A DNA stretch of 64,000 bases, from contig CM114271.1 of the NCBI GenBank assembly GCA_050084515.1, forward strand, positions 24,676,001 through 24,740,000, written 5' to 3'. The translations under genes and the position numbers were made by a program. Source of the DNA: Blasia pusilla (Eukaryota). The notes under the pieces were generated by a model. The model was not told where the DNA came from, did not search any database, and was given only the letters and a program-made list of their open reading frames with translations. Shown here piece by piece: positions 10,752 to 62,100 of this stretch (positions are counted from its first letter, which is position 1; each line of letters opens with the position of its first letter).

Positions 10752-10788
<37 letters not shown>

Positions 10789-10839
10789 ACTCATTAAGTA
10801 GTGCCTGTCGTAGCCTTGCGACCATAGACCCCGCGCCCT

Positions 10840-10875
<36 letters not shown>

Positions 10876-11454
10876 CTCCAAATCCCCAGCCGACTCCAAA
10901 TCCACAACCCGCACCAAAACCTGTCAGGGGAAACATAAGGCGAGACAGCCCACTGAGAGCACTGCAGATCCATTCACCAAACGCGACTGCGAGGCCGAGA
11001 CTTCAACAATTATCGCCAACTGTCCAGAGCTCTGGACAGTTGGAGTTCGGAGCAGATGCCAACTTTCTTGGCAAATGCTCAAAATGAGAGAAACTCGTCC
11101 ACCTAATTTCCATTCCAGAAGGCAGTGGTACCAGTGACACGATCCTAATAGAAAGATGTCTCAAGACCCAAATGTGATTAATTGATTGATTACTCTAACG
11201 ATTGAACCATGGGGTAAGAGCAGCAGCATCCACTCTAATACTCAGCGACTGACCTCAAAATGCTCCAAAGAAATGTGCCCACACATTTCCTTATGGGCAG
11301 TGAAAAATTCCCAACAAGAAATTCTTGCCGTTCAACGCAACCTACTATAGAACACTGCGCAAGGAAGGCCTTACAACACGAAATCTACTGGTGAAGAGCA
11401 GAGAGAGAGCCCACCAAACCCAACTCCGCGACCACTGAACCACGAAACCACCAT
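8259..11454 (-). CDS. TGD5: TRIGALACTOSYLDIACYLGLYCEROL 5-like glycine-rich plastid envelope protein, 94 aa, 4 exons
   Basis: Exons 11454-11415, 10920-10876, 8945-8913 and 8425-8259 (all GT-AG, 285 nt) give [73 protein letters not shown]..., which matches the TGD5 motif pattern. Confidence 0.9.
10286..10838 (-). mobile_element. Three stacked 5'-truncated LINE 3' ends within a (CT)n tract in TGD5 intron 2
   Basis: A ~58-nt terminal motif occurs at about 10286-10344, 10683-10742 and 10781-10838, each ending CAGTCTCT on the minus strand. The longest copy encodes HYLVSCTKFTTHR...FLVDTWKLR, resembling a LINE ORF2 C-terminus. Confidence 0.6.
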
Positions 11455-11953: not shown

Positions 11954-12138
11954 TAACGGCAAGTGTCGGTGAGCGACGCTAACACATGGGAGTGACCAAC
12001 CACTCGTGTTCTTGTCAGATTTGTTTCAGGTTATCAATAGTGTTGACCAACCTCATCTTCTCTAACGGCAAGTGTCGGTGAGCGACGCTAACACATGGGA
12101 GTGACCAACCACTCGTGTTCTTGTCAGATTTGTTTCAG
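11954..12138. repeat. Exact 76-bp direct duplication, 109-bp period
   Basis: 11954-12029 is identical to 12063-12138. Confidence 0.95.
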
Positions 12139-12672
12139 ACTATCAATGGTGTAGCTCGTTGAGCCGGTGTTTGCGTTGGCTTGTTGCCATTTTCTTTTTG
12201 CATTCTTTTATGCATTTTTTGACTCCTCTTTTGAGATGTTATTACCTTTCTTTGTCCTCTTCTGAGGTTTATTTTATAATAAAGTGGATATATTAAGATA
12301 AGGCCCTTAGGTATCCCGTTGAAAGAATGTCGGTTCATACTGGACAACGGTTTTGGGGTTTTTCTGCGTACACAAAGGACGAATTTGCATAGCAATGGGG
12401 CGATTTTAGGCCATGTCGGTGGCTCATCCTTCCTTGACATTTCGGTGGTTATCAAGATGCCCTTCCTTCCTTGACGGGGAGTGCCATGCGTCTCCATGGT
12501 TGTGATTTCATATGTCTAGGAACCTCAAGATGTTGGGACTACCCAAAACTTACCGATCTGATTTTGTGAATTATTTGCATCTGAAAACCACAAAAAACCC
12601 TTCAATGGACGTCCACCTTCACGGGAAATCCAAGTGACACGCCCTTATAGGGCATTTGGACGCATCACCGTG

Positions 12673-32100: not shown

Positions 32101-34366
32101 GATCAACTGTCTCACCCATTCTGAACATCCAAGACATCACCAAAACGTTACAGATACCTTCAGAGCTAATTGCATCCTCCGAGGGTTGCGTAAATAATGT
32201 GAAAAAAACTTTCTTCTTTCTTGTATTGGACATGGCTGTTGGGAAGATAGCAGAAACAACAATCAACTTGGATGAGGATACTTGTTACAGGCTGTTGAAC
32301 ATCAGGAAAAACTAAAGCTACAAAATCCACCATGATGCACAGTTGGGTATTTCAAGGAGGCAACTACCTCTCTTTCTCAATCAATTTCAGTAATCCAGAG
32401 ACAGTCTTGTTCTCAACTTCAGGACAAGCCGAAAGGTGCTTGCGAAATAGAACCAGACCCATATCCCAGAGTGACCGAATATGTGAGGTTTGAATAACAT
32501 AAGTTCGATCTAGATACAGAGCAATACTTCGTATCATGAGCATCTGATCACAATGGTCTTGCCAGCACTTTTCAACATGCGACAAGAAAACCACAGGATC
32601 AGGACTCTGACCAACAAGGGACCGCAGCTTTGTCATGATATGAGTTTCGCATTCTTGTTGAAGCCTCCGGTACAAGTTACTTGACATCTTGTGCAGACAA
32701 AGGTCTTCAGCTGCCTGTAGGTGACCAGCACTTTCAAATATCAATATCATATAGCAGCAATGCACATCACCTCACAGTTGTAGTATCCTCACACATACCT
32801 TCAGATGACCCAATAATAAGGCATGGATTTATTTCTTTTTCTACTTGACTTCCTCTCAACTTTTACAAGCCATAAACAGACGACCTTTGGAAATTCACCT
32901 AGTTGGCAATGTCTAAAGTCCCAAACCCTTCCATCCGTGAAATATCTTCACAAGCATGGGGAAGTTATGGAATTTTATCCAAATGTCATCATTGTTTACG
33001 CTCATCCAGTGTCAAATGAAAACAGCATCCACCCAACAGCAAGCCGGTTGAATAGCCTTAAGACGTTCAGAGGCACAGGTTGGATCTGAACAAAATATAA
33101 GGATTCCGAGCACCGGGCTACACTAAGCTCTGACCAAGGTTGTAATGACACCTTGATGGCTCGACGTTCAGAGAACTCCAATTGTTGGATAAAACGTTTT
33201 ACGATTGTTTGCCTCAAACCGGAGTGAAATGAAAGATGTTCGAACAGAAAATCATATATTTCAGCACCATCTTGCAGGAATGGGAGATACTAACCCGATA
33301 AAGTTCTTCCAGGCTACAAGATACAGGCTGCTTCAAGTGAATTGCCATGACAGCCTCCTTGATCTTGGCCCAAGTTACTTCTTCGAAGTTGGTTGGTAGT
33401 TTAGGTTTATCTGCACAGTACGAACACAACCAAGAACTAAGTAACTTCTTCAATCGATCCTGTGCAACACTATTAGGTCCATTGAGTGCCAGAGGGCCAA
33501 TCATAACGCACACAAATTGCTGTCACATAAGTAGAATGCATAAACTGGTTATCTATCCGTACTGATACATAATAGGTTGGGGTTAGGGAACAGTGTAATC
33601 AAGAAGCAAACGTCCCCATCTCCGGGGTCTAGGATTTGGGCTTCAGTTTGTCCTACACTGTTCCACCTCGATCAGTTAGGTAGAACTGAGGTGCGCGAAA
33701 ACTACAACCGTAACAGACAGAAACTTCATGTATGCATAAACGATGCAATAGAGGTCTTGATTCAGCAATTTTCACATACAACAGATTCCTGAGTTTCGTT
33801 GGGATAGCTAATTGTGAGTAATTCAGAACCTCTCATAGATTTCAGTCGGAGACTCAAATTGGAAGCGCCTCTTACGCTGTAGATGGATTACATGACGTGT
33901 TACATTCAGCCTCATTCCCGTATCAGAAATTCACAAGGGGATGTTCAACCCAACAAGGTTTTGAATCGGAGTTAATGCCTGGCTTTGATAACGAAGCACG
34001 CTGAATAAGGTGAATTTTCTGCAAGGGTGAGTCACAAACCATCAGTTGATCAGAACATGTACCTTTGAAAGGTTTAATAACTAATTTTCTTGCAGGCTGA
34101 GGAGGTGTGGCCTTCTTCCTAGATAAATTGGCCGTGGTCCCGCCACCGCTAATACTCATGGCCATGGCGGGTGTGGGGGCCGAAAGACCATCCCCTTTCA
34201 GGTCTATCATCAAGAGGTCACCAGAGCTGTCTTCGTCGCCGGTTAGATGTTGTGCACCATTTTTCTCAAAGGTATCCAGGGCAGACTGAGGCTTAGGTTT
34301 CTTTGAAGCGGAAAGCATAGTCGACCCGCCAGTTCCACCACTGCTAAGTCTCTTCTTCTGAGACAT
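26156..34366 (-). CDS. CUL4: Cullin-4 (CRL4 E3 ubiquitin ligase scaffold), about 17 coding exons
   Basis: ATG at 34366 (MSQKKR). Motifs include [71 protein letters not shown] and the neddylation motif [13 protein letters not shown]. The C-terminus [24 protein letters not shown] stops at 26156-26158, and the introns are GT-AG. Confidence 0.96.
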
Positions 34367-36323
34367 TAAACTTTCACACCGAGCAGCTCCTAGTGTCACC
34401 ACTACCTGTTACTCTTATCTCCTCCTCACGCATCTCTGCCTTATGAATCTTGTTTCTCGACTCCCACCGACAGTTTCGCTACACTCGATACGACGGCGCG
34501 CTGTGTCCTCCCTTCATCCACGCTTCGAGTGAGCTCCTCGCACTTCCTCCCTGTAATTAATTTTGCTGTCTATGTACTCGTCATCTATCCCTAATGTTCG
34601 AAAGTGTAGGTCACAGATCCCGCGAGCAAATGGAGGCATGCATCCACGCGCCTGAACTCCATTTTTTTCTCGAGTATCTGTCTAATTGACCCCACACGCA
34701 CCAACGTCCGCACCGATTCCACCGCTGAAACCAAACGAGCGCACGAATCCTGCCAAAAGCCCTCGGAAAGTTTGACACCACCGAAGAAGTCGATACCCGG
34801 GTCACTGCTCGCCGCGGCCTCTCTCCTCCGTTGTGAACGCCTGAAACCACTGCAAATCAGCGCGAACACGCGCACAAAAGATACACGGCACAGTCACAAG
34901 AATCATCCCACAATTGACGCAGACGAAATCATCCACGAAGCCCCGAAACGCAACCAGCATCGGACATCACAATCACCCTCGTCCGCTCGACACCACTCCC
35001 GCTCACTCTCCCGTCCCTCCTTTCCTCCGACTCATCCTCCCCACCTGCACCATTCCAATCCGGCTCTGTCAGCGTCACTCCTCCTCGTCAGTCAGCGGGC
35101 CGGTCAGATCGCAGACCGACCGCAGCCAAAACCCCGCACGCAGCAACCTCCCTCCGCACAGCGAGCGCAAGGAAAAGAGCGATGGCACCCCGACGCTCGG
35201 ACCACCAAAGGGGATGGAAGCACCGTGCATCCGTCCAGCAAGCCTCTCTCCACCCACAGAAGAAGAGAGCAGGATGCTAAGCCAGAGCGACGACGAGGGA
35301 GGAGGTTTGGTCTCGGCTGTGGAGGCGGGGGAGGGCCCATTCCTGGGAGAAGACGGGAGGCCGGAACACCGGCGAGAGGCGACGCGTGACGGGGGGTGGC
35401 AATCCGGCGCGCGAAACAGGCGGATGACGGGTGACGGGAGACGGGACGCATGACGCTCTCGCCCATAAGCTTGCTGGCAGCGTAACATTTGGCAGCAATC
35501 CTCCCAAACGGGAGGTCGACACCGGACAGCGCGACGCGTGGCAGAGCCGGCACTCTCCCGGTGCCGGTTGAAGGGCACGGATTAGGGTTTGGCTATCGGC
35601 CTTCGCCCTCGCCGTGCACATCTCCCTCATTACTTCCGCTAATAATTACTCCAAAACTCACGAGTCGTGCATCCATTTCATTCAAACTCCCGAGACGTGA
35701 GACCGGTACCTCCACTATCATCGAGCTTATTACGAAGTAAGACGAACGCACACCCCAAAGATATATACCCTTTCCATCAAAGCGTTTAGGGGCGTTATGT
35801 GACGAGTATTTTTAAACGCTGGAATCAAGTCCCATAGGACGGGAAATGAGAGGGAAACGAGTTTGAACGCATTCCGATGGGTCTTCTTTCTTTCCTCGTG
35901 GAAAAGGGGAGGGAACCGGAATTCAAATAGGGATGCGTGGCCCCGACGCGAGATATCATAGCGAGTGGAGCGGATATTTATTTCTTAATTTATTTGCGCT
36001 GGACATATTTCATAGCACCTTTTTAACATTCTTGAAATAGTTGTGGATTAGTAGGGGTGCAAGGAGGTAATCTTATGCAGAAAACGGGAAAGGATAGAAC
36101 TTCCTTTAACTTGTGAAGGGGAAATTTGACTAGTCATCTTCAATAATTATGTTGTTGAATACGTGACACATACTCGATTAGATCATTTATGTACCTCCCG
36201 TTGTTCAACTTCGTCTCATATTCCATAATAGCCTATGTAATACCCCTAATAGAAGGAGAAGAAAACCGATGTAGAGCATGGTTTGCATTAATAGGAGAGA
36301 TTATCTTTGTGGTGTAGTGTATA

Positions 36324-45161: not shown

Positions 45162-48100
45162 TATTGAAGATTGATTTAATGTCAAACTCATGAGACACAT
45201 GAATTGCTACATTTGGTACTCACACGAAGTAGGGAAGCTTAATCTTGGTTAGTCACTTAAGCGCCATTATCTTAACTAGGGTTAGTTAATCACAGTTCGT
45301 CTAACTGGAGACTATGCTTAAGATTAGGGTTAGGGTTGCTTGTGTATACCCTCTATAATGGATAAGGGACTAACCTTCATTCATTCTCTCATTGCAAAAT
45401 TTTGTTGTCCATGGTGGTGTGCAAGTGTGAGAACCATTTGCCACCACTTATGCTTCTTTAGCAGTTTTCTACATCCTATCATAGCTCGCTTTTCTCATAG
45501 TGGGTGTAGATTTTACGTGGAGCTTTGACGATGATAAAACTTTGGAGGTGTTTTTAAGGGCTTTCCCGATTGATTTAGCCATTTGTTTCCGCATCGGTTA
45601 GATAAAATCCAAAGGTTGGTTCTAATTGTCTTGTAGAGCTCATTGAGAGCTTCCAACACATTTAAAATCTAAGCTCATGCAGTAGCAATTTCAATGTAGG
45701 AAAGTGCAATTAGTGAAGAAAAGTTCTCTACATAAATATATATAAGGTAGATAAGCATAATTACAATATTTGGAAGTTTTGCATGAAACAATTTCTCATG
45801 GATCAAGAACTATGGGAGCTTGTCACAGGTGATGAGGCCAAGACAGAAGGTCACTCAACAAACTTGAATGTTCGCGCTTGGAACAAACGCACAAGACAAG
45901 TAATCCATTACATAATAATAACTATCGATTCGCCAATAATATGTCACATTCAAGATGTTGATATTCGGAAGGAGACATGGGATGCATTAGAAAAGTTGTT
46001 CCATACATCTACAAAGGCCATAAAGCTTCAATTGAAATAGCAATTGAATGAAGTGAGGAAAGGATTGGAGAGCATCGATGATTATATTTTGAGTATCAGA
46101 TAAATTATTGATAAGTTGAATAGCATTGAAGTGACAGTAGAAGATGATGATCTGATTTTGTTTACTCTTCAAGGCCTTCCAAAGGATTACAAGTCCTTTG
46201 AGACTTCTATCTCTGTCAGAGAGAAGTATCAAACTTTTCAAGAGTTAGTCTCACTGTTAATCAGTGAAGAGTTACGTCGAGTAGGCATCAGTAGCTCGTT
46301 TAGTCTTCAAGAGAGTGTCCTATTTACATGTTATGGATCAAACAGAGGCAGGAGTTGTGGCAGAAGCTTCCGTGGTCGTGGTGGATATAAAAAATATCGA
46401 GGAAGAGGCACTCAATATAATGTCACTCAATCAACTACGAATCAGTACCAAACACAATCACAAGGTGGTGATGGTGGAAATCGTTGGGGTCGAGGTCAAC
46501 AACATAGGGTCCATGGATCTTACAATTACTGTGGGATAAAATATCATTGTGCAAAGTTTTTCTTCAAGAATAAGGAAAATATGAGAACATGAGCCTTACA
46601 TCAACAAAACTATGTGGAGCAACAACAACAACGGCACTACCAAGAACAAAAACATTCACAAACTGAGCATATCTTGGTCATGACTCATCATATGGGAGCA
46701 ATGGTCAAGAAAGATTCGACACCAGATACATTGACTCTAGTGCATCAAATCACATCACCTCATAAGCTAAATGGTTCAATAGTTTGGAGCCGGTGAAAGA
46801 TCCTGCAATTGTGTTGATAAGAGATGACATTGAGCATCATATCACGCATATCGATAAAGTTCCAGTAGCATCAGATGGTCTTTGTGGTCTTGGAATTATT
46901 CTCTATCTTCCTACCATTGCAAGAAACTTGATCTCTACATGATAGATAGTATAGCAAGGTTATCAAGTGAAGTTTAACACAAATGGTTGTTTCATTAAAA
47001 CAATGGATGATCAGACTACGATAGCCAAAGGAACTAGATCTGGAAGAATGTTCAATTTAGATATTTCTATGCCAGACATTCAAACAGCAATGTATGGTCA
47101 AAGAAGCCAACAAGTCACATATTTAAATATGTGGCATAAGAGAATGGAAGATATGAATCTTTAAAGATTACAAAGTCCTTCATCATCTAATCTAGTAATA
47201 GGACTTCCTAAATAAGCAAGTCCTGCTACGTTAGAGGTATGTCCTCCTTGCCAATTTGGAAAATAAACTAGATTTCCATTTCCAAAACAAAGTAGAAGAG
47301 CATTCAAAATATTGGAGTTGATTCACATTAATGTGTGGACAACATCACAACATAGCCTTAATGGTTGCCAATACTTCATTTCATTTATTGATGACTTATC
47401 TAGATATATATGTGTATACTTTATGAAAGCCAAGTTAGAAGTATTCTCAATATTTCAAACATTAAGAGTTCTAGTAGAGAAGCAGACTATAGAGAATATA
47501 TTATGAAATTGTGTTCAGATGGAGGAGGAGAGTATCTTGCAATAGAGTTTGATGATTACTTACATCATAATGACATCCAATGTCGAGTACTTGCCGTTAC
47601 ACTCCACAACAAAATGGAGTGGCTGAGAGAAAGAATCGGCATATTGTTGAGACAGCACGAGCTATGGTGAATGAGAACATACCTAAGGTGTATTGGGTTG
47701 AGGCTATAGTGTGTGCAGTCTTCTTGATCAACCAAACTCCAACAAAAAAATTCATGATAAGACTCCATTCTAAGTTCTTCACATGAAGTAAACGTGGTTT
47801 TTCTTTCATGAAAGTATTTGGTTGTAATTGTTTTGCTCATGTTCCTTCTGAAAGATGTAAAAAATTAGACCCCAAAATTTGAAAGATGAATATTCATCGG
47901 CTACGCTGATGGAACTAAGGGGTATAAGTGCTATATTCCATCATCTAGGAAGCTTATTATTAATCGCGATGTTGTCTTTGATGAGCTAAAGTCATGGTAT
48001 GATACATTTGAGCCTATTCCACCTCTAAACTCGTATGTTTTTTTTTTTTTTGGGGGGGAGATGACTGTAAACCAATTGACAATGCCTTCAAATTCCCCAA

Positions 48101-50139
48101 GTACAAGTGTAGGATTAGGAGAGGTCATAGATTCGTCAGTTAAATCTGTAAGTCCACGGAGGAGAAGAGTACATATTCAATCTGTTGACTCTAGTCAGAG
48201 CTCAAGTCAGGTGTTAGAGGTATCTACCTCTGAACAAAAACTTCGTAGATCAAGTAGAGTCACATATCATGTTCAGAGATTCATATATATATATATATGA
48301 AGGTTTTCTTACGATACATCATGCATATATGATGACTACCCTTCAAGACCATAAGCCGAGTTATTTTAAAGAAGCTGCAAGTAAAGTCGAATGGATTGAA
48401 GCTATGAAGGAAGAGCTTGCTGCATTAAAACATCAACACAATTGGGAGTTTACAAAGTCAAGCGCAATCAAGATGGTATAGTTAATAGATATAAAGCGGG
48501 ATTGGTGGCTAAGGGCTATGCACAAAAATATGGCATTGACTATGGGGAAACTTTTAGCCTTATTGCAAAGATGGCGACTACAATAAAAGTGGTTGCAGTT
48601 GTAGTAAGTAAGAAATGGAGATTACATCACATAGACGTCAAGAATTCTTTCTTGAACGCAGATCTATATGAGGAGGCATATATGACTCAACCACCTAGAT
48701 ATGAGCATCCCAAGTTTTCATTTCGCGTACGTATGTAGGTTGAAGAAAGCTCTATACAAGCTCAGACAAGCTCTTAGAGCCTTAGTATGGCAAGATTACA
48801 TTTATCGTACAAGAGTTGGGTTTTAGGGTATGTGATTATGACTCCTCGTTATATGTCTTGAGAGGACAAGATCATAAGATTATCATTGTGCTGTATGTTG
48901 ATGACCTCTTGATTACTGGGAGTACTAAGGATATGGTACAACAAGTCAAGCTAAAATTATAGGCAAAATTTTATATGAAAGACTTGGGAGAACTCAAATA
49001 CTTCTTTGGTGTTGAGTTTATCAAGGTTGGAGAGACCATGTGGTTACTACAACGATAATATGCTCTTCATATGCTTTCAAAATATGATATGACGGCTTGT
49101 AAGCCAATCTCTACACGGTTGGACCAGAGTGTGAAGCTAAGAGTGGATGAAGGAGAGTTGCTTGCACATTCTAATATGTATAGACGCATGGTTGAAAGTT
49201 TGATCTATCTAACTATAACACGGCCAGATTTGAGCTATGCAGTTGGCCTAGTTAGCCAATTAATGCAAGCACCTCGAAAACCTCATATTGATGCTTTAAG
49301 GAGGATTATGCGATATGTGAAATTATTTATTCAATTCGAGCTTCAATTTGAACCTTCTCCGAGTTAACAATTACATGGATTCACATATGCTGATTGGGCA
49401 TGAAGCGTGTCTGATCGACACTCCACATCTGCTTATTCACTTACTCTGGGAAGCGCCGTTATAAGTTGGGCTTCAAAGAAGCAACCTACAGTGGCTTATT
49501 CTCAACAAAGGCTGAATACACAAGAGCAATCAATGGAGCATGTGAGACGGTGTGGCTTCATCAATTCCTTGTTGAGATTTGTGGTAGTAAATTAGGACCT
49601 ATATGTAGACAATATTAATAACATCAAACTTGCTAATAATCCAGTGTTGAGGTGCACTATCATTTTATCAGAGAGAAAGTGCTTGCAAGAGAAATTGATC
49701 TTGTGTATAAAGGTACAGATCAGCAAATTTCTTACATCTTTAGAAAGGCATTGTCTAGAGATAAGTTTGAGATGTTTAGAAACGATTGCGGCTTGTTAGA
49801 GATATCGATATGAGCTTGAGGGGGAGTATTGAAGATTGAGTTACAGTCAAACTCATGAGACACATGAACTCCTACATTTGGTATTCATACGAAGTAGCGA
49901 AGCTTAATATCGGTTAGTGAGTTAAGCGCGATTATCTTAACTATGATTAGTTAATCATAGTTAATCTAACTAGAGACTATGGTTAAGATTAGGGTTAGGG
50001 TTGCTTGTACATACCCTATATAATGGAGAAGGGGACTAGCCTCTACTCATTCTCTCGTTGCAAAATTTTGGTCTCCATGGTGGTGTGTGAATGTGAGAGC
50101 CGTTTTCCACCAGTTATGCTTCTTTAGCATTTTTCTACA
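45162..50139 (+). mobile_element. Full-length degenerate Ty1/Copia retrotransposon
   Basis: LTRs at 45162-45473 and 49827-50139 (TA...CA), degenerate PBS TCCTATCATAGC, PPT GAGGGGGAG and TSD GGAGA/AGAGA. Order is gag, then integrase (DGGGEY, TPQQNGVAERKNR), then RT (LVAKGYAQ, LYVDD), then RNase H. Confidence 0.93.
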
Positions 50140-50530
50140 AGAGAGAGGAGAGAGGAAACTACCTTCATCCCAAAGAGATACATTTGGTTGAAGAGAGCTT
50201 CATGTGGTTTGAAGAGAGTTTCCGTTGGGTTGAAGAGAGGAAGTTTTTTTGGGGAATATTTTTGCAATTTTGTTCTCTATGCTTAGTCACTCCCACAGAT
50301 TGGCTTGTTCTCTTCCATATTCTGGCAACTCGTCGGAATCCGACGGGTTGCAACTTGCACAAACTAAAAAAAAACTGAAAAATTCATTGGAATCACTAAT
50401 GTGGAACAAATCACTTTTTCCATACAAGGTATGAAAAACACTCATCATTTATCCATAGCTGATAAGGGTACAAGCTCATAGTGAACATTTTGGCACTTCA
50501 GGGTACAATCAAAGACCTCATTCTGCATCC

Positions 50531-51900
50531 TCAAAGTGGTTTGTTTAAAATACTTCGCACTTCTTTGAGAAACAAAATTGGTTGGTGGATTCCTACGCCT
50601 ACCTCCGACTCTCTTAAACAACAAGCAACACATAGTAAATGTGCTTACAAGGGAAATACCTTTTCCCACTTGTCTCTCTTTGGACAAAGTCATCACAAGA
50701 ACATGTGGGGAAAGTAACAGATATGTACCACATACATCCCTATCACACTTGAATTCAAAGTGTTGTTCCTGATCCAATACATCCTTCCTATTCCATTGCT
50801 ACTATGAATGTCTTTTGTGGCGATAATTTTCATGTTTGCATCCCGAGCTTATGCGATTCGCTGTGCTCTCTCCATTGTTCGCCTACACATTCTATTTCTA
50901 TTCACCCCATTTATAGGCTCGAACAGAAATAATGGATTGAGATCATCCACCTTCTCAACATACATGTTGATATCAATCCTGGGTTAAATTCAGAATACAA
51001 AGGTCTCTGTAATGTGAATATGCTCCAAAACTCCGTCCATCTATGAGTTTGAAAATCAAGACTTATAAGATTTTCCACTTTGTCAGGGGTGGAATTGGTT
51101 CCTGCAGCAATGGGCCAAATCATGGGAATATTCCCTAGAGCTCCAATGGTAGTCGGATAAGACTTTCGAAGAGTGCATGATTCATTTGGGCATAAGATGT
51201 ACTTCAATTGATCCTCGGTTCTCGTAAAATGATTAAAGGTTTCCAGCCCCCATAAGCCTAGCAGTGGTTGTCTTATTCTTACATAGTTCTTATTCAGGAA
51301 AGTGCCACATGCTCTCCTAATGCCACCGATCCTGCCTTGCAAGTAGGTATACCTCGAGGGTTGCTTCGAGAAATATGCCACCGCTTGAGGTTGCAATCAA
51401 CCTCAACGATCAGACTCTTAAGTGGGAAGTTCCAGCAAAAGAGGGATTTTCAAATAAAACATTCATTGATTTTGCAGAAGGTACTTCAACTCAAATTGGG
51501 GAGCAGTCCTGTGTCTTTGAATACATGAGCGGGATTATTTCATCATCCAAATCAATCACTGGATTCTTTCCTCGATGCACACGGTTGACTTTCCTGAAGT
51601 CAAATTACTTATCAGGTCTCCAACAGTCTCGTTCAGACTTCTTTACTACCATCTCTATGGGACATTTCGAAACACGCCCACGAATGTCCTTACCAATGTA
51701 AACGTCTTTCTAAAGAGGAGTTTGAGCTACGCACCAATTGAAAGCTTCCACATACAATTTCTCATCCCCAGATCTAACAGCGGCTCTAACATAGAGCTCG
51801 TAAATTGAAGGGTCCTTTCCCTTGGTTACGCCTTTTGTGAGGAAGATGTGGAAGCCTGCAGATTATAGCATTGCTCTTGCCTAGTCTTGTTGGCATGCCT
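50531..51900 (-). pseudogene. SWIM zinc-finger protein pseudogene (MEKK1/ZSWIM2-like SWIM)
   Basis: Frameshift-joined translation QRIA.AR...YVVHICYFPTCSCDDFVQ...PCKHIYYVL...IHQPIL.LKEVRSIL gives CxC...CxH at about 50620-50740. The 5' boundary is approximate. Confidence 0.72.
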
Positions 51901-52058
51901 CAACATATATATTTTTTGACATGTTTATGATGACCTAAAGGAGGAATGAACACTCTCGACTCCGCTTATGTTGGGGCATAGGGCATTTTTGTGAATGTTA
52001 AGTCCCTCCACGGGAAAACTTATCAATTGATGGAGGGAACGCCTAAGTGTTGAATGAT

Positions 52059-53017
52059 TGCAACCCGTCACAATCTGACGGGTTGTGAGAAGCATTGAGA
52101 TGAAAACAACCAACCCGTCGATTGAACCATCGCCGACTGAGTGGACTAGCCAGAAAGGAATATTCGGAAATCATGATTAATGACTAGTGGGAAAGGATTT
52201 GCCGGGCTTCCTTCAACCTATGGGAGCCTGACGGTTTGGAAGGTAGACTCATGGGGGACTCCAACCCGTTGGAGTCCGATAGGTTGGAAACCCTAATGAA
52301 GCATGTCGACCGATAAAACGCACTTCGACGAGTTCAATTGAGTTTGGGTGGGACGATCCGACCCATCCGATTCCATCCTATCATACTCCATGGGAAAGAT
52401 CTACTAGAGGTCCTTCAACCCCTCAAAGTCTGACGGATTGCAAAATGAACAAACTCAAAATGGCGGTCCCTCCCTGGTCCTAGCCCGCGATAACCCATCA
52501 CACTCCCACGGCTTGTACCAGTTAGGCAGCTTGGATTTCGTGCAACTCGTCGGAGTCCGATGGTTGCACAAATCAGTTTGAATGGTCCCCGTGCATCCCG
52601 TCGGACTCCGATGGGATGCACGGGACCTAGGCTGGATGGACCCCATGCACCCCGTCATGGTCCAAAGGGTCACAGGAACCAAGCAGGATCAATGGTCCCC
52701 GTGCAACCTGTCAGACTTCAATGGGTTGCATAGGACCTAGGTTGGATGGACCCCACGCAACCCGAAGTGGTCCGACGGGTTGCAAGAACAGGGCACGATC
52801 AATGGTCCCGTGCAACCCATGGGAGTTCGAAGGGTTGCACGTGACCTAGGCTGGATGGACCCCGAGCAACCCGTCGCCCGTCGGGGTCCAAAGGGGTGCA
52901 AGAATTGGGCAGGATGGACCCCGTGCAACCCGTTGGAGTATAATGGGTTGTAGGTAGAATCCTGGGCATATCTCCCATGCATTGGAGTTGCAACCCATCG
53001 CGCTCCAACAGGCTGCA
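52059..53017. repeat. Palindrome array 1 (~15 copies), between the divergent genes
   Basis: Consensus TGCAACCCGTCGGAnTCCGACGGGTTGCA, for example at 52541, 52592, 52702, 52756, 52811 and 52924. The core has a ~55-bp period with two alternating spacer types. Confidence 0.92.
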
Positions 53018-54588
53018 GGTAGCTCACGCGGAACATGCACCGTAATGGTCCACCATTGTACAACCGGTCCCCTGTCGTACACCAACGGTCCGCCGTCGCA
53101 CCAACGGTCGAGTCCAACGGCTCCGGAAGTACATAAGGACCAGTTTCGAGGCTTCTCACTTTTCTATTCTACAATTTTCCGCGTTGTTTTAAACTCCCGT
53201 GTTAATACAACTACCAAAACTTGCTTTCTATTTACTCGAACATTTTGACGGTTGGTGGTGACGGTTTGAATTGAAGCGATTCTTTTCAGAGTTAATGAAG
53301 ATTTAGGTAAGAACCCCTCGTGAAGCATTTGATTGTTGGCTTATTTTAGGATGACTCGAAAAGATTCCCAAGCCAGCAAGGTCGTGAGCTTCTTTCCCAA
53401 GCCCGACAGAACTCCGTCTTTTGGTACGCGACGCACGGCCGCAAATGTTTGGCGAGAGGAAATCGAGGAGCGCGAGCGAGAAACCGAGATGAGGAAGCAG
53501 GAAATGTTGGAGAAACTAGCTTTGGAGAAGGTCGCAAAGCAAGCGGAGAAGAGAGAAGTGAAATTGCTTGCGGATGCGGAGAAGGCCGAGAAGAAATGCA
53601 TGGAGGCGGAGATCAAGCAGAATAAGAGCTAGGACGCCGGCTTCCCGAAAGCCAAAATTGCAAAAGCCAGGAAGGAAAGGGCATTGGTTGTAGAAGAAGA
53701 ACATGCCCAACAACCCACCGAGAGTGTGGGAATGGAGGATGTCTCATCCATGAGGTCGAGTGGTCCAATGCACGAGACCAATACCAAGGAGCTTCTAGAG
53801 ATCAACAAGGAAGCTGTTAGAACCCCGAGTGTCAAGATAATGGAGATCTCGTAAGGAGAAGGAGGAGAGTCTTCTACATCTCAAAACCATGTTGAAGAAT
53901 TCGTCCTCTTTGCAATTGAAGAGTTTCCAGTAGACTTGCCGGATGAGGCTCCATAGGAGCTCGTTGGACTTGACACTGACCCACTTTTCGAGCGGGTAAG
54001 AATTATTCAATAGTTCTCTCTACACTGCATTACTTCCAGTTGTTCTGAAAATTGGAATTGACAGTGGTAACATTCGCGGAGGTGTTGAAGCAGGAGATAC
54101 TGGTGGATGGCCGGAATGTCCCGAGGATTCTTCTCTACCAACTCTAAACGATGGAATACATTTGACAAATCCAATCGGAGAAAGACATTGACAAGTTGAA
54201 GCAGTCATTGACAACAACGTCATACGTTGACTTCCCACCTTTCTATCTCCGACCGTAGGTTGAGCATGGAACCCAAGCTTTGGTTATGGAGGAAGAATTG
54301 GAGAGTCTAGATGCTTTTTGGAGGTTGAGGGACGTTGAGTTCCGCAAGGCAGTAGCAACTCAATACAAGTGGATGCAAAACTTGTACTTCTTCATCTAGG
54401 ATGACAACCACCAATTCATGGCACGGTCGTAGTTTGCAGCAGAGCGACCAAACTCCCTTGAGGCTCACTTTTGCGTGAGGGCGGTGGTCCTCCATCTCGA
54501 CTCAAATCATATGGCTAAGGTGGAGATGGCTATGCTCTCCATGAACACGTAAGCATCCTCAACAAATTTCCCCAAATAAGAAGCGGTT

Positions 54589-55397
54589 TCAAGCCGTCAG
54601 ACTTCGACAGGTTGGTTCTTAGTAGTAATCATTAACGATAGCAGCCACCCGTCAGAAGGCGACTGGTTGCGATAGGAACAACTTGCTCCCGTATTTGCAA
54701 ATCGTCAGACTCTGACGGATTTATTTTGGCTCTCTATTGAGTTTCCTGGAAACCCGTCGGAGTCCGACGGGTTGCACAATCTCGAGTGTAGCCATCCAAG
54801 TAGGATAGGCCATATAACCCATCAGACTCCGACGGGTTGCATGATCTTTATGGAATGAGTCTTGGTTGGGGTGGATGTGCAACCTTTCAGTCTCCGACGG
54901 GTTGCAAAGGCATGCAAAGCCAGACCATTCAAACCATGGCCTTTCTTACGGCACATGCAACATGTTGGAGTCCGACGGGTTGCAAACCACTCACAACAGG
55001 GCCTTTCTTACCGCATATGCAACCCGTCGTACTCCCACGGGCTGTAGGGCCAATCAAACTCGGCTCTCGAAACTACAGTTCGTGCAATCCGTCGAACCCC
55101 AACAGGTTGGAAGAGGAGGGACCTCTTGCAACCCATCGGACTCTATCGAAGTGCAAGAGAAAAAACTTGCCTTAGAATCCTCAACCACATGTAAATATAA
55201 TACCCGGTGTGGGTGGCTTTGCAACCCCTCGGTTTTTGACAGATTGAATTTTTGAATTTAGGGGCCTGGAGGTGCAACCCATTGGAGTCCAACAGGTTGC
55301 TACCCAACCTAGATTAACGCGGATGCAACCCGTCGGTTTCCGACCGATTGCACCGAGGAAGCTTTTGGAGCAACTGTCAAACTTCGACGGGTTGCAA
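54589..55397. repeat. Palindrome array 2 (~14 copies), in an intron of the methyltransferase gene
   Basis: Same consensus, for example at 54750, 54878, 54956, 55273 and 55324; spacers are variable. Confidence 0.92.
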
Positions 55398-57310
55398 ACA
55401 AGTGCCATTTTGTTCGTCTACTTCCAATCCCTCAGAAACCGACAATTTTATTGTTGTAAGTGTTCTTACTTCTCATTGATGTTTCCAACATCCTGTCGGA
55501 AGGGAATGTTACCCATCATTGGATCGAGGAATGCAACCAAGTGAGGAAGGTTCTTACAACGTACCCGTCGTAATACAAAGGATTCCTTGGAGAGGATTTG
55601 GTGGATGAGATGGTCGCAAAAGGAGCACAAATTAAAAAAATACTTGGGCCAACACATTCATTTCCCAAGATGCATTTGTTACGATTCTCTGTTGGCCAAA
55701 AATACAACCGGCAAAAAGAAGCGCGACACTCGAGTTGGAGCAGAGAGGGAATGTTTTGGATTCTTAGAGAGCGAAGTTCATTAAGGCTGTTGTGTCGGCG
55801 GCGATCATCTACCTCAAGGTTGAGGACGGTGATGCATCGGTTTATCGCCATCCTCAACCCCGAGCTCGGACGTGACTTTTACAAAGAGTTGAAGGCCATA
55901 ATCAAGCGACAACAAAGGAGGGACAAGGATCCTCGTGGACGGATTGTAGAGAACGTGTCATTGGATAGAGCTCACTTGTTCGCCCTCTCAAGGATTTCGG
56001 AATTTAGGCAGATCCAATTGATGAAGATCAGTCTAGTGGGAACAGAGGCATAGAACAAATCGGCACACCATCCCCCTGGGGTGTCGGACCTAGTCATTTC
56101 CCAGTGGCTACGAGAATGGTCCTTCTGGAATGCCTTGCGCTTACAAGGAAAGTCGATGATTGAGTGCCTTCAAGGCGACATGCAGAGAATTCAGCCTATT
56201 TCAGAGGAGACTAGCCTCGATTCGGCGGAGGAGTACAAATTGTGGTTGAATCACATCCGGGATAAGCCGGCAAAGAACCCCAAGTTCAAGACGATGTTCA
56301 AGAGCGATATTTTGCCGGAGGGAGATCTCGATGAGGAGATTGGCGACCCAAAGAAACGAGACTTTGAAAAAAAGAAGAAGGAGCTTCAAGATCAAGCCGC
56401 CGATTCATCCCGCCAACGAGCTGCACAGAGGATGGTGATCAAATTTTTGCCCTCCTGTGTGAACGTAGGAAGATGGAGGAAGTTCCCGGCGGCGCTCAAG
56501 CTATGGGCAAATACTCCGCATGGTGAAGGATTCTTCATGTACCACGTGGAGATGGCACTCGACATGAGCCCTTGGGAAGTGCTGATCAAACTGTCCAATC
56601 TGCTTGGACTTCAACGATCATCGAGGACGGCAACGGGAGGCCCCGAAAATGAATCTTATGGATTGCGACGTCACGGAGACCCCAACAAGCAGGCACCCCA
56701 CTCGCGAGAAGAAAAAGAGGGAGATAACGGGTTCCTCCAAGGGGGGGGGGAACAAGAATGTAGTCTAAACTCCCTCATTTTTGGGGAAGCACAGGGATGG
56801 AGCATCGAAAATTACTATCGCTACTGGAAGAACTAGAGAAGTTCTCCACATAGGAGTCCACGATGGCTTGGAGAAGCTGACACTCTTGGGATGAAAGCTT
56901 TTGCAAAACGGCCATGCCTCATGGACCGTCAATGGGGTACCTGAGGAGGTTGCACTTGACCTCCTCATTGTAGATCTACCGTCGGGGCTTAGATTGTGGG
57001 CAGAGAACCCATGCGACACAGCCCCAGATTGGAACATTCCCTTCACATATGACCAAATCGAGTTGATGTCCTCCTTTGCCAATGCGTATCAAAGTGACAC
57101 GTGATGTTTCCTTGTTCTCACCCGTGGTAGTGAGGATGAGCTCTTAAACTTGCAATGCGCGAAGCGATCATTGAAGTGGCAAACAGTGCAGTCTTGGGAA
57201 GTGAAGAACAACTACCGCTAAGGTCGACTACAAACCAAGTCTTGGTAAGTTCGAAAAAATTATGCAACTTTTTTCTTTTTTTTTCTCGCATCCTGGTTTT
57301 CATTTTTTCT

Positions 57311-57648
57311 TGCAACCCATCGAACGAGTTACACATTGATCCTAACAAGCCTTGTGCAACCTGTCGGAGTCCGACGGGTTGCAGACGGACTATGCGCACA
57401 ACCCGTTGGACTTTGGTGGATTGCAGCACCCACTTGTCGGGTTCTTGGGTGTGTCTAGCAATCCGTCGGATTTTGACGGGTTGCTGATAGGCCCTGTGAC
57501 TGCCTGTGCAACCCGTTGGAACCCAACGGGTTGCATATCCACAATTGGTGAGTAACCCGTCTGAGTCCTACAGTTCGGATCCCCCACTAAACGCAAATTG
57601 CCTCGGTGACATCTGACATTTGCAACCCGTCGGATTCCGTCAGGTTGC
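57311..57648. repeat. Palindrome array 3 (~7 copies), in the intron splitting the methyltransferase domain
   Basis: Same consensus, for example at 57355, 57507 and 57621, between the donor at 57245 and the acceptor near 57709. Confidence 0.9.
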
Positions 57649-58952
57649 TCCTAGAAGACTTCTTCCTCCCATTGATTCTTAGCTGATTTGTACGGTTCTA
57701 TTCTTTGCAGATCGAATACTATTACGTCTATTTTTTGTCAAACCAGAGCACGGTTTCGAGGTTTTTGAGGTACAGGATCCTGTTGATCCAGGTTCAGATG
57801 GATTCACTCTTACCAACCTCTTTAATTCATCCCCATAAATCGTCGTTGAGGAAGGAATGATTAGAGGGAGAGGAAAATCACCCGCACTCATGCATACCCT
57901 CATGGAGCTCTGTTCGAGGCCAGGTGATTTGGTGCTCGATTTGGTGGGTTTTTCTCGGGCAACTGTTAGAGTTGCTTGGCAGAGTGGCCAAAATATTCTC
58001 TGCCTTGAGTCTCGAAACACCTTGTTTGCACTTTTATCGGAGGCAAAGTCTGACTACGAGAGGGATATGGGCGTTTACAAGTCGCCTGCACGGATCAATG
58101 AACCTGCACTGGAGCCAGTGGTTGTGACGCCATCCTCACTACCAGTGATCCTAAAAATCGGAAGGGCAAGGCCACCGGTGATTCTAGAGGAGTTGTCAGA
58201 TGATGATGAGTGAGTGCATGTGCCTTGGATTTGAAGCGTTTTGGAGTTGACATGTGTTGGTTCTTGGGAAGTAGGAAATATTGATATCAATGGGTTTCCA
58301 TTTGCAGAAGCTTCAAAATCAGTTGTCGAAGTAGGCGTTGGGACTCTTCTTGTGTCACATGGGACCGATACGGGGTACCTAGGGGGACAAGGGTCTCGGA
58401 TCCTCCTTCCTTCTCTGTTCCAATCAACAATCACGTAGAAGAGCCTCTGACTAGTCTGAGAAGTCTCTTGTCGAGGAACCGGCAAGAGTTAGGAACATTT
58501 GTTAAGATGACGAGGCTGAAGAGATCATGGAATATATTTTATTGTTAAGGAAATCAAATGTAAATGACCGATTTGCAAATGGTTTTAAATAAAGTGGTTT
58601 TTTTAACGCAACCAATTCTCTTCATGCTTATGGTCTGATATTATTTTTTATCACATTTCAAAATTGAGGTGAGGCTTTTGTGCTTTTGTAATGTGTCGAA
58701 AATCGACGGGTTGCCTGCTGTCTTTTCACATTTACATTTTTCCTGGAAAATATCTTTTCCCATTTATAGTTTTCATGATGTTCTTTCTCTGTACCGAGAC
58801 CAATTTATTCTCTTCGTTTCTTTTGGTCTTGTATACGTGCTTTCTTGGACTCCTATCTTTGGTTTGAGGCGTTGGTAACTCATCTTATTCCAAAAGGTTG
58901 AAAACCACTCCAACCGAAGAGTAGAATCAATTTTTGCAGAATATCCAGTCTT

Positions 58953-59115
58953 ACAACCCGTCGGAGTCCAATGAGTTGCAAGATAATCAAAATGAGAGAC
59001 AATACAATCTTGCAACCCGTCGGATTTTGACGTGTTGCAAGAGGTGCAACCTGTCGGCTTCCGACAGGTTGCAAGGGATGCAACCTAAACCTGATGCAAC
59101 CTGTTGCAGGTTGCA
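58953..59115. repeat. Palindrome array 4 (~4 copies), downstream of the methyltransferase gene
   Basis: Same consensus at about 58953, 59011, 59045 and 59095. A lone copy also lies at 50325-50352 near the other end of the element. Confidence 0.85.
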
Positions 59116-62100
59116 ATAAGTTGTGGAGAATCCCATCTGATGGAATAGTATTGATCAGATGGGATATTTCATGCTTTTTTACATGAAGAGACCTCCTACC
59201 CAACATGGTGAGGATGGGAGTCCTACATTAACAGTCCATAATTTCAACCATATCTTTTGAGAAGTTAAAACGTAAAGGGCACATGAGTCTATTGACACCA
59301 TAGACAGAGTCTTTATTAGAACCTTTCATTGAGATCATTTTTTTTGTACTCATCAAATTATCTACCGATGGTCCTCCAACAACAATATCCCTCAATCGGC
59401 CTTACTATAGAGCTGGCTTAGACAAGCAATGTGAAGAAAATTAGGCTCACATGGAGAGTGTTGGAAGGATGTTTGCAGTGGTTCTTCTGATGTCATCTTG
59501 TTTTTCCAAGCCTGGAAGAAGAAGGTTAGTTTAGGCCCGAATGTGGTCTACTTGCTACTCTTCTCTAAAGATTTTTGAATTTGAAACCATCTTTTTTTTT
59601 CAAAAATGTCAAAAAGTTTTAAAGAAAGGAGGCGGATTCAACCTCTTTTTTTTTAATAGAAGAGAGACTCCCCTCTCTTCCTCTCCTCTCTTACTCTCTC
59701 CTGCTATAATACTAGCCCCCTCTTTGGAATATTGTGAGCTGAATAAGGTAACGGTGAGAAATAGTTACCCTTTTCCAAGGATTGATGACCTCTTCGATAG
59801 ACTATCAGGGGAAAACTACTTCGATAAAATTCTTTTAAAATCAAAATATTACCATATTCGGATTGCCGAAGTGGATGTGGAAAAGACTACGTGTAGAACG
59901 AGATATGGCTTGTTCAAGTTTGTGGTGATGCCCTTCGGTCTATGTAATGCGCCTCTAGCATTCACCACATTGATGGACTCCATTTTCCACGAGGAGACAC
60001 ATGAGTATGTGATCATCTACATAGATAATATACTCATCTATTCGAAGTCACTAGAGGAGCACACTCGACACTTGAGAGCGATGTTGTTGAAACTAAGGGC
60101 GAACAAGTTGTACGTGAAGATGGAAAAGAGTGAGTTCGGGTTGGGCAAGATCAAGTTCTTGGGTCATGTGGTTAGCAAAGATGGAGTTAGTCCAAATATG
60201 GACAAGGTGAAAGCCATCGTCGAGTGGAAACCGCCTTCCACAGTGAAGGGAATGAGGAGATTTATCAGCGCGGTGCCGTTCTACAGAACCTACGAAAGGA
60301 ATTTTTCGGGGTTTGTGAGATCTCTCACATCTTGGATTGCAAAGTATGCTAACACAACCTGGATCCAAGAAGTGAATGACGCGTTCAATCGAGTCAAGGA
60401 GATCCTATTGCAGGAGGTAGTGTTGAAGCTGTTGGAGTTCGACAAGCCGTTCAAGGTGCATACTGATGCTAGTGATTTTGCAATTGCAAGAATGTTGGTA
60501 TAGAAACGAAGACTTGTAGCGTACCAGAGTAAGAAGCTCAATAACACTAAGAGGAGATGGCCCACTCATGAGAAAGAGTTTTTCTTGTGGTCCATTGGTT
60601 GAGGAAGTGGCGTCACTATTTGGGACTTCACAGGATTTGAGTGTTCATCTAAAACGTATCACTCAAGTATTTTGAGACCGAGGATCGAGTGACACCGAAA
60701 CAACTGCGATGGCATGATACCTTGGCGTTGATGAATGTGGAACTGATCCACAAGCAAGGGAAGGATGATGTCATTCGAGATGTATTGAGTTGCAGGGATG
60801 AAGACATGCCATCGACAACACAGGTCTTGAGAGCAATGTTCCCTAAGGAAACAGATCTGGAAAGAAGGATTCGTGAGGGATACATGAAAGACATCCAGAC
60901 GAGTGAGTACCTAAGGAAGTTGAAGCAGGGTGAGAAGGTGGCCAACATAAATTTGAGGCAAGGTTTGCTAAGGTTCAAGCAGAGCAGGATCTATGTGGGC
61001 AAATGCAGATTGCGAACCAAGGTGTTAGTGGAATGTCATGACGGACCCTTGTCAGGACATAAAGGGGAAAAATTGACGTTGGCTGTTTTGGCTAAGAGGT
61101 TCTTCTTGCCCAACATGAGAGAGGATGTTGCTTAATATGTGAAGACCTGTGTGACCTGTCAGGCGAGCAGATTTTCTTATGGGAAGAAACAAGGCTTGCT
61201 ACAGCCTTTGCCAATTCTGGATGGACCCTTGTAGAGTGTGAGTATGGACTTCATAAAAATTATTCCAGAGTGTGAGGGATAAAACGCCATACTTATGATA
61301 GTTGATTGGTTTGGTAAGTTTGGGAGATTCGTGCCGATGGTGGATTAAGCGACGAGCTTACGACTTCTCGACTCTTCCTGGATAGTTGGTGGTGTGCGCA
61401 TGGGTTGCCTAGTTGCATTGTTTCAGATCAGGATCCAAACTTTACATGTGCCTTTTGGTAGCATTTGTTCAAGAGGTTCAAGACCAATCTGAGTTTTAGC
61501 ACGGCCTTCCATCTGTAGACAGATGGGCAGACGGAAAAGCTAAACTCCCTCGTGAAGCAGTTCTTAAGGAATTACACACAAGCAAGATTAAGCGAAGTGG
61601 CTGAGTATGTCCAAGTTCTCCTAGACCTCAACCAAGCATTCTGCAATTGGAGAATCTCAATTTCTCTTGGCTTATGGACGTGAGCTAGAAGAGCCCCTTG
61701 ACCTAGCCCTTTGAAGGGCACTACATCAGCACAGACTCGACAAGCGACGACAGAAGTTTTGTTAGCGGAGATGCGAGAATGGGAGGAGCGAGCAAGGAGA
61801 AACCTTTCAAAGTCTCAACCAAGGTCTGTGGAGCATGCTAACAAGAGCAAGCGCCAAGTGAGATTCCGAGCTAGGGAACAAGTGTGGTTCACTGTGAAGA
61901 ATCTCACTCTTCCGAAGGAGTTACCTCCGAAGCTATCTGCCAAGTATGCTCGATCCTATGTGATTAAGCAAACCCATTTGAGGACATGTATACCTTGGAG
62001 CTACCATAAGAGTTTAGGATACATCCCACTTTCCATCTGTCATTGTTGAAGAAGTATCTTCAAGATAATGAGCGTCTGAGCGCAAACAGACGTTGAGACC

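Follow-up and report, generated by a model that had tools for sequence, protein, structure and literature searches.

Our analysis concerns a stretch of 64,000 nucleotides from Blasia pusilla (the window: assembly GCA_050084515.1, contig CM114271.1, positions 24,676,001 to 24,740,000 of the forward strand) and a gene copy that occupies about 53.3–58.2 kb of its plus strand. This copy is a pseudogene, dead and functionless. It contains a ParB-like block that is very probably an exon of a pseudogenised copy of a multi-copy eukaryotic family – one that fuses a domain of the ParB/sulfiredoxin (Srx) fold to a methyltransferase-like domain. The sole named members of this family are uncharacterised proteins of Riccia sorocarpa. 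In intact members the architecture comprises a ParB/Srx-fold domain with the motif DGNHR and an insertion of about 45 residues, a middle region, a charged linker and a beta-class (CcrM / M1.HpyAVI-like) N6/N4 domain. Judged by sequence, the family appears to be a eukaryotic form of the ParB-methyltransferase fusion that has not been described before and whose catalytic motif departs from the canonical one; no description of it was found in the literature on ParB-like proteins, methyltransferases and transposons/Plavaka in liverworts and bryophytes.

The initial annotation had proposed a hidden ParB/Srx-like domain upstream of a methyltransferase, legible once stop codons are read through. That reading is present on the plus strand, in the frame of 54067/54160: ...PRILLYQL*TMEYI*QIQSEKDIDKLKQSLTTTSY...YFFI*DDNHQFMARS*FAAERP...VRAVVL...AMLSMN (asterisks are stops). 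The block is bounded by an AG at 54063–54064 or, in frame, at 54080–54081, and by a GTAAGC starting at 54548. Five in-frame stops interrupt it (TAA at 54145, TGA at 54163, and TAG at 54256, 54397 and 54430), of which the TGA occupies the conserved R of a V-R-P motif. Codons 54397–54414 read TAG GAT GAC AAC CAC CAA and, just as had been claimed, single transitions restore WDGNHR: one such change apiece turns the stop, the second D and the Q into the W, G and R that typify the family. Decay is not confined to this block. The middle block carries two stops, the first methyltransferase block two and the second one, making at least ten in frame; moreover, both the G and the R of DGNHR are replaced in the window copy, and so are the motif-I glycines. 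No second copy of the ParB-like block was found within the window. A frameshift near 54180 was considered and dropped, since a single frame aligns from 54121 on, and CpG depletion proved unremarkable, with observed/expected values of 0.57–0.84 in the blocks against 0.65–0.68 in the rest of the window.

Evidence that the block belongs to a family came firstly from a phmmer search (query 54160–54549 with X at stops; 1,835,955,588 representative proteins; E ≤ 1e-3). Sixteen proteins matched, at identities of 27–35%, the best with an E value of 8.2e-8 and none at or below 1e-10; the alignment of the block with these relatives (A1) runs end to end with hardly any gaps. Where the window has *DDNHQ, 14 of the 16 relatives have DGNHR, one has DGNHH and one DDNHR, and among family proteins DGNHR-type instances number 28 of 31 in a pattern search that misses some. 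A profile built from 22 longer family proteins matched the window at 54103–54555 on the plus strand with an independent E value (i-E) of 2.5e-14; on the minus strand its sole row (12133–12267, i-E 6, negative score) was non-significant. Because of the phmmer and profile E values chance resemblance is excluded: as far as sequence can tell, the likeness of the block to the family lies beyond chance.

All named relatives are 'hypothetical proteins' of the liverwort Riccia sorocarpa; where they must be told apart they are referred to here by P numbers. A search with P0022 (663 residues) added at least 52 gene models from Riccia, spread over 8 contigs of 5.4–56 Mb, at 31–78% identity; many of these models look truncated or split. 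UniRef names two family proteins (P0041 and P0048) 'Trimethylguanosine synthase', and a precomputed ParB domain is present in none of P0022–P0077. A word-indexed protein search with the open reading frame (ORF) 56081–56836 gave no longer relatives. A similar search with A1 among proteins of 810–2310 residues gave none either; it missed the known member P0026 (873 aa) too, and hence constitutes no evidence. A metagenome locus (L001) reached through a single query (P0007) turned out to be a false lead, its ORFs being unrelated.

Gene structure and the methyltransferase-like domain

A further proposal of the initial annotation, that the ParB-like block is part of the same gene as the methyltransferase, is borne out. 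The family profile matched the window in four collinear blocks, all on the plus strand, in three frames and separated by gaps of 0.6–0.9 kb; in addition, full-length Riccia models (P0026, P0051 and P0040) join both parts. The collinear blocks and these models together indicate therefore that we are dealing with one gene. Its features are as follows:

53333–53996, plus strand: tentative 5′ part, a charged low-complexity N-terminal region, given by position only and ending at a GT (53997)
53997–54081, plus strand: intron-like gap; GTAAGA from 53997, AG at 54063–54064 and 54080–54081 (putative splice sites, from sequence)
54082–54547, plus strand: exon-like block, decayed ParB/Srx-fold N-terminal domain with five in-frame stops; profile positions 131–287, matched at 54103–54555 (i-E 2.5e-14)
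54394–54414, plus strand: degenerate GxxR (P-motif / Box II-like) site, I*DDNHQ against [FIV][WFLC]DGNHR in relatives
54548–55488, plus strand: intron-like gap with palindromic repeat units; GTAAGC at its start; AA, not AG, at its end
55487–56266, plus strand: conserved middle block without known domain, two in-frame stops; profile positions 284–546 (i-E 1.1e-16), tblastn E to 1.3e-15
56267–56866, plus strand: charged linker, frame open to 56836, counterpart of the K/E-rich variable linker of relatives; no profile match
56868–57212, plus strand: methyltransferase-like domain, N-terminal half, with VDLPSG (motif-IV-like) at 56970–56987 and two in-frame stops; profile positions 856–970 (i-E 4.8e-5)
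57213–57790, plus strand: intervening stretch, intron or insertion, with palindromic units; profile gap
57791–58213, plus strand: methyltransferase-like domain, C-terminal half, with a motif-I remnant, GDLVLDLVGFS, at 57923–57955; PF01555 E 9.5e-4; profile positions 1008–1089, matched at 57791–58045 (i-E 6.6e-4)
50321–50353, 52058–52896, 54594–55353, 57350–57648 and 58951–59073, no strand: clusters of a ~29-bp palindrome, from a unit search

The relatives themselves show how the parts belong together. In P0026 the order is a ParB-like domain with DGNHR, a conserved middle, a K/E-rich linker, ILDLPSG (motif-IV-like) and the motif-I-like GDIVIDFAAGWG; both this protein and P0022 hold DGNHR and the motif-IV-like site within one model, while P0051 and P0040 combine the start of the ParB-like region (IPLCRL-type) with the whole C-terminal methyltransferase-like domain. 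P0021, which has the ParB-like part, and P0043, which has motif I, stand next to each other by locus tag, as though one element had been split between two models. When family proteins were compared with the window by tblastn, all 47 segments fell on the plus strand and within 55487–58006. The acidic tail and the stop at 58211–58213 form the usual end of the family, as in P0048 and P0051.

The blocks on either side of the gap at 54548–55488 are contiguous in the proteins P0022 and P0026. Joining 54547 to 55489 would keep the frame and reproduce the relatives' ...LN-ASSH.. junction, but the AG expected here is AA. From the sequence we infer that this gap and that at 57213–57790 behave like introns or insertions. 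Further upstream, the AG at 54080–54081 is the one that preserves frame with the stretch ending before the GT at 53997. That stretch (53333–53996) lies on the same strand with frames partly open, and relatives have comparable charged N-termini; its match to the family profile is non-significant (i-E 6).

What, then, is the C-terminal domain? Pfam PF01555 matches the window with an E value of 9.5e-4 and 19.6 bits, below the curated cut-off of 26.7; P0051 (25.9 bits, 1.1e-5), P0048 (23.6) and P0058 (20.6) are likewise sub-threshold, 11 of 14 long members give no match, and the matches span only profile positions ~161–218, on the motif I side. A structural model of P0048, made with a second alignment (A2), has an overall predicted local distance difference test score (pLDDT) of 58.4, with 77–96 in most ten-residue blocks of residues 220–495 and three loops that dip to 34–66. 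With this model Foldseek returned 41 PDB matches at E ≤ 1e-3, headed by CcrM (6pbd, 9.9e-8) and including M1.HpyAVI (2.0e-7), M.MboIIA (3.7e-7), M.BceJIV, RsrI and the rotifer N4CMT (3.1e-4), with PvuII just above that level (1.6e-3); the listed matches below 1e-3 are N6A/N4C DNA methyltransferases plus one Type III Mod subunit. The A2 profile also matched M1.HpyAVI (E 0.0013), the family's GDIVID..G.WG lying on DPFMGSGTT of the enzyme. The predicted fold is that of the beta-class DNA amino-methyltransferases, with motif order IV ... I.

The catalytic motif itself departs from that of such enzymes. All 19 motif-IV-like sites of the family conform to D[LMI]P[ST]G (DLPSG 7, DMPTG 5, DLPTG 4, DIPTG 2, DMPSG 1), the window having VDLPSG; the canonical (D/N/S)-P-P-(Y/F/W) was found at none of the 19, in a pattern search that also allowed DPP[YFW]. 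In the P0048 model the motif-IV-like D closes the strand 293–299, where motif IV normally lies. At motif I, the S-adenosylmethionine (SAM)-binding FxGxG, nine models have GDIVID[FL]..G.WG; in the window this site is lost (LVGFSRAT). Conservation of D[LMI]P[ST] suggests a constraint on something different from standard base-amino methylation.

Fold of the N-terminal domain

The nature of the ParB-like block was assessed through an intact relative, P0014, modelled by AlphaFold2 with A1 (mean pLDDT 82.4, predicted template modelling score 0.68). A structural search of 48,161 PDB representatives, independent of Foldseek, placed only members of the ParB/Srx superfamily at ranks 1–7: KorB (8qa8, Z 5.1), Arabidopsis sulfiredoxin (6ky4, Z 5.0), PadC (6ryk, Z 5.0), Atu1540 (2hwj, Z 4.7), pNOB8 ParB-N (5k5d, Z 4.5), a serine kinase (5x0b, Z 4.5) and human Srx (1yzs, Z 4.1). 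Re-alignment of the 65 usable chains from Foldseek gave a top 15 consisting of ParB, Noc, KorB, Srx, SbnI and Spo0J (Z 6.6–3.6), the next chain scoring Z 2.2; the best match was Noc (7ng0, Z 6.6, root-mean-square deviation 2.6 over 81 residues). About 80 of the 134 residues of the model align with ParB/Srx structures, the remainder being the family-specific insertion of ~45 residues, placed after the first strand region and before the strand that carries DGNHR. The GxxR phosphate-binding motif, which takes the form DGxHR in nuclease and Srx-like members of the superfamily and lies at the putative place of Box II / P-motif, is kept in relatives (DGNHR) and lost in the window (DDNHQ).

Several observations weigh against assigning the domain to ParB. 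The window read-through has no match to Pfam PF02195 (ParBc) at E ≤ 10, nor has any of the 17 rows of A1 at the same level, and a six-frame Pfam scan of 49001–59500 at E ≤ 1 also gave no PF02195. The PHROG 'ParB-like partition protein' matched just 3 of the 17 rows (E 0.13–1); a comparison of the A1 profile with PDB sequences gave nothing under E 0.58; and the Foldseek search with the P0014 model was non-significant (all E > 1.7), its list being rich in ParB, Noc, Spo0J, KorB and Srx. All Z scores lie below 8, in the range that the tool calls 'middling' and short of what its notes would trust on score alone, the models are predicted and derive from relatives rather than from the window sequence, and the Riccia relatives are themselves computational gene models. 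Weak Pfam matches centred on the DGNHR site went to DUF1015 (2 of 17 rows, best 0.0056) and DndB (1 of 17, 0.066). In a protein-language-model atlas the nearest neighbours of P0018 were phage hypothetical proteins (score 0.92), with 8 of 30 matches in a set in which PF02195 stands at 11%; we treat these neighbours as a lead only.

Taken on its parts, the proposal of a ParB/Srx-like domain thus holds for the fold and fails for membership of PF02195. Because the structural list is exclusive and the motif is of GxxR type (DGNHR in 14 of 16), the predicted ParB/Srx fold is well supported; on these models the relation to ParB is a kinship at the level of fold, not of family. Canonical ParB partition proteins have a helix-turn-helix domain that binds parS, a C-terminal dimerisation domain and a ParA partner; linkage to ParA does not apply to a eukaryote, and in the middle region no domain was detected among 14 long members (Pfam, E ≤ 0.01).

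Copy number, palindromes and competing readings

Three DNA runs from the source organism (X1–X3), all at low coverage, yielded 535, 236 and 193 contigs that match 53300–58300 at 80% likeness, most of them less than 90% alike (332 of 535 in X1). The gene, or parts of it, is present in many diverged copies in the source organism too. Transitions predominate among the differences that separate the window from these paralogous contigs: X1 has 195 C>T, 197 G>A, 138 A>G and 133 T>C changes, with each kind of transversion at 56–70. Among the runs listed as containing this region none was an RNA run; a further run, X4, which is RNA only by guess, contributed 4 short partial contigs less than 90% alike. 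The copies keep their intron-like gaps and would therefore not have been made by retroposition. The deepest bins of contig coverage were mostly those with palindromic units, plus one in the ParB-like block (54135–54301).

These units are instances of a near-perfect palindrome of ~29 bp (core CCGTCGGAnTCCGACGG). It matched the window 22 times at ≤ 3 mismatches, against 0.07 expected; 21 of the 22 matches lie between 50330 and 59067, with at most one elsewhere in the window. They stand partly in tandem arrays of 110, 62 and 34 bp – the 110-bp array within 52.06–52.90 kb – and their clusters surround the gene and also occupy its two large gaps.

The accessory genes of red-algal Plavaka elements appear to be the nearest analogue. 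According to the available part of a preprint on these giant DNA transposons (bioRxiv 10.1101/2025.02.11.637652), they carry a PF01555 gene and a ParB-like gene adjoining inverted-repeat arrays: in Plavaka/Mutator elements PAG2 combines PF01555 with SET and PAG3 a ParB-like N-domain with a 2-oxoglutarate (2OG) oxygenase, and the tandem inverted-repeat arrays beside PAG3 are proposed binding sites. Like PAG3, the present family has a ParB-like domain recognisable by remote methods only (7BNR_B, described there as the best HHpred match of the red-algal protein, is one of the top structural matches here too, at Z 6.2), and like PAG2 and PAG3 it shows a PF01555-type methylase, adjacent inverted-repeat arrays and high copy number. 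In the red algae, going by description alone, the two domains are divided between genes in which each has a different partner (SET, 2OG oxygenase), and the elements bear a known DDE transposase; here both domains are fused, the genome is of liverwort type, and neither transposase nor element ends were found at the locus.

By this analogy the family would be an accessory gene belonging to a DNA-level mobile element – the likeliest reading of the copy, though in our estimation about evenly balanced. Weighing against it, the six-frame Pfam scan of 49001–59500 gave no transposase domain, and inspection of the locus brought up neither terminal repeats nor target duplications. The palindromes, too, are much commoner than the gene in the DNA runs and are joined there to unrelated sequence; they may be independent small repeats, high-copy in their own right. 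A SWIM zinc finger (PF04434) at ~50600–50720 on the minus strand, of the C-x-C...C-x-H type as in Mutator-like transposases, reached E 0.0063 and 16.5 bits against a cut-off of 19.6; protein-atlas neighbours of the minus-strand ORF beside it (50911–51396) were uninformative (best score 0.78). A Mutator-like element across 50.3–59.1 kb was considered and set aside, its one support being the weak SWIM match.

The same facts lend themselves to a different account: an ordinary, non-mobile, lineage-specific host family spread by segmental duplication, of which the window holds a dead duplicate, with the palindromes as unrelated repeats inserted in its introns. The lack of a detected transposase, terminal repeats and target duplications, the far greater abundance of the palindromes than of the gene, and the position of the copy within a nest of other repeats (copia long terminal repeats (LTRs), gypsy reverse transcriptase from 59541) would all be in keeping with it. 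Yet at least 52 models on 8 contigs, many truncated and 31–78% identical to one member, and hundreds of diverged contigs in low-coverage runs make a pattern typical of repeats and not of host gene families; such genes, moreover, have a precedent on red-algal transposons. We consider this account rather unlikely, though deserving of serious attention.

More specific versions of the mobile-element reading are less secure. On the pattern of the accessory genes of Plavaka and Mutator elements in red algae, the palindrome arrays that lie around the gene and within it might serve as its binding sites; this strikes us as unlikely. More doubtful again is the full scheme of a liverwort-type DNA-level mobile element in which the ParB-like/methyltransferase fusion would recognise its own 29-bp palindrome arrays in parS-like fashion and mark or shield its own DNA – a fused counterpart of PAG2/PAG3, and possibly the stock of the liverwort sperm N4-methylcytosine (4mC) methyltransferase.

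Could the ParB-like and methyltransferase-like blocks be two separate, adjacent genes? Their distribution over three frames with gaps of 0.6–0.9 kb might be taken to say so, as might the fact that, of the 16 proteins related to the ParB-like part, 12 are short and end at the block end. But P0026, P0022, P0051 and P0040 join both parts in single models, the window blocks keep the profile order without overlap (131–287, 284–546, 856–970, 1008–1089), and the short relatives stop where the window has an in-frame stop after a 5′ splice-site-like GTAAG – as expected if ORF callers end inside an intron. Two genes are thus very unlikely. Slightly less credible still is a recent viral or bacterial insert or contaminant, derived from a phage or giant-virus ParB-methyltransferase. 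Fusions of the ParB fold to PF01555 are typical of phages, going by the available part of one survey (PMC12704722), and the phage neighbours of P0018 in the atlas provide a lead in that direction. The gaps, however, are intron-like with GT starts, plant-type copia and gypsy elements lie on either side, and the named relatives reside on Riccia contigs of 5.4–56 Mb; viral contigs gave no match to P0018, and 50,697 phage records none to P0048 by tblastn. As for chance resemblance, or a live gene with recoded stops, we give these next to no credence: Pfam indeed shows no ParBc domain, but the E values refute the former, in-frame stops of all three kinds are present, the motif has lost its conserved G and R, and each of the remaining blocks is likewise broken by stops.

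The surroundings of the copy merit description in their own right. The window is eukaryotic, plant-like sequence, and the gene copy sits between copia (5′ side) and gypsy retroelements. The former is a copia-type LTR retrotransposon on the plus strand at 45162–50139, with LTRs of ~312 bp at 45162–45473 and 49827–50139 that are 86–88% alike, a gag-like ORF at 46116–46592, and polymerase remnants as far as ~49.9 kb. A gypsy-type reverse transcriptase ORF (59541–60503, plus strand, 320 aa) starts abruptly 1.3 kb past the end of the methyltransferase-like gene; neither gag nor protease is evident upstream, and the element is therefore probably 5′-truncated or nested. Further away, two minus-strand ORFs (31766–32266 and 33923–34402) have the look of exons from an ordinary host gene, and one of them may resemble a cullin-type sequence; if they do belong to a host gene, the repeat nest lies ~15 kb away from normal genes. 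An ORF at 10300–10917 on the minus strand contains repeated SLSLSLSL stretches, suggestive of a CT/GA-type microsatellite duplicated within ~200 bp.

Relation to known systems

In sulfiredoxins the catalytic cysteine sits in the motif G-C-H-R. The present family shares the fold (Arabidopsis 6ky4, Z 5.0; human 1yzs, Z 4.1), but at the place of that cysteine, before HR, it has an N (the invariant N87, in 16 of 16 relatives), and it differs further in being fused and multi-copy. Liverworts are also, to our knowledge, the only plants for which the use of N4-methylcytosine has been reported.

The prokaryotic counterparts are better charted. In the part of the survey available (PMC12704722), phages and prophages are reported to show an enrichment of proteins that join the ParB-CTPase fold to PF01555, and the common eukaryotic representative of the ParB fold is said to be essentially sulfiredoxin. 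That survey, as its accessible text describes, used PF02195 at the curated threshold; the present family fails that threshold and would therefore have escaped it. As far as the accessible parts of PMC12704722 and PMC4738411 describe the phage and bacterial fusions of ParB-N (PF02195) to PF01555, the family resembles them in module order, in its GxxR-type motif and in a link to selfish DNA, which for this family is putative. Unlike them it belongs to eukaryotes and has intron-like gaps, a charged linker and a middle region that is long and conserved; its N-domain, with an insertion of ~45 residues, has diverged too far for PF02195, and at motif IV it has D[LMI]P[ST] in place of DPPY/SPPY.

Eukaryotic enzymes with ParB-derived modules have been described before. 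In the portion of Iyer et al. 2016 that treats them (PMC4738411), certain chlorophytes and chytrids have a ParB helix-turn-helix fused to Dam-type N6A enzymes, and enzymes of haptophytes derive from phage ParB-terminase loci. The chlorophyte and chytrid proteins, like the present family, are eukaryotic fusions in which a module derived from ParB is joined to a DNA methyltransferase of prokaryote type. Theirs, however, unite the ParB helix-turn-helix with a Group-2 Dam-type enzyme, whereas here the ParB N-terminal (Srx-like) part is joined to a beta-class, PF01555-type domain; from the haptophyte enzymes, too, the family differs in both module and class. Closer in host are the MpDN4MT1a/b proteins of Marchantia, sperm N4-cytosine DNA methyltransferases encoded by two tandem genes and bearing a TSPPY motif; the available part of the preprint that reports them (bioRxiv 10.1101/2021.02.12.428880) makes no mention of ParB. 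Compared by that description alone, they share with the family a liverwort host and a prokaryote-type beta-class amino-methyltransferase kind, and differ from it in number (two genes, as opposed to a multi-copy family) and in motif (TSPPY, as opposed to D[LMI]P[ST]).

In intact proteins the ParB-like module would act as a nucleotide-binding and/or DNA-associating unit, and it may place or control the methyltransferase-like domain on DNA, as has been proposed for the phage ParB-methyltransferase fusions. The replacement of DPPY by a conserved D[LMI]P[ST] raises the question of what that domain does – whether it lacks activity, binds in a SAM-dependent manner, or catalyses a new chemistry. A many-copy, intron-bearing fusion of this kind would, in any event, widen the known reach of ParB-methyltransferase fusions from phages to a lineage of land plants.

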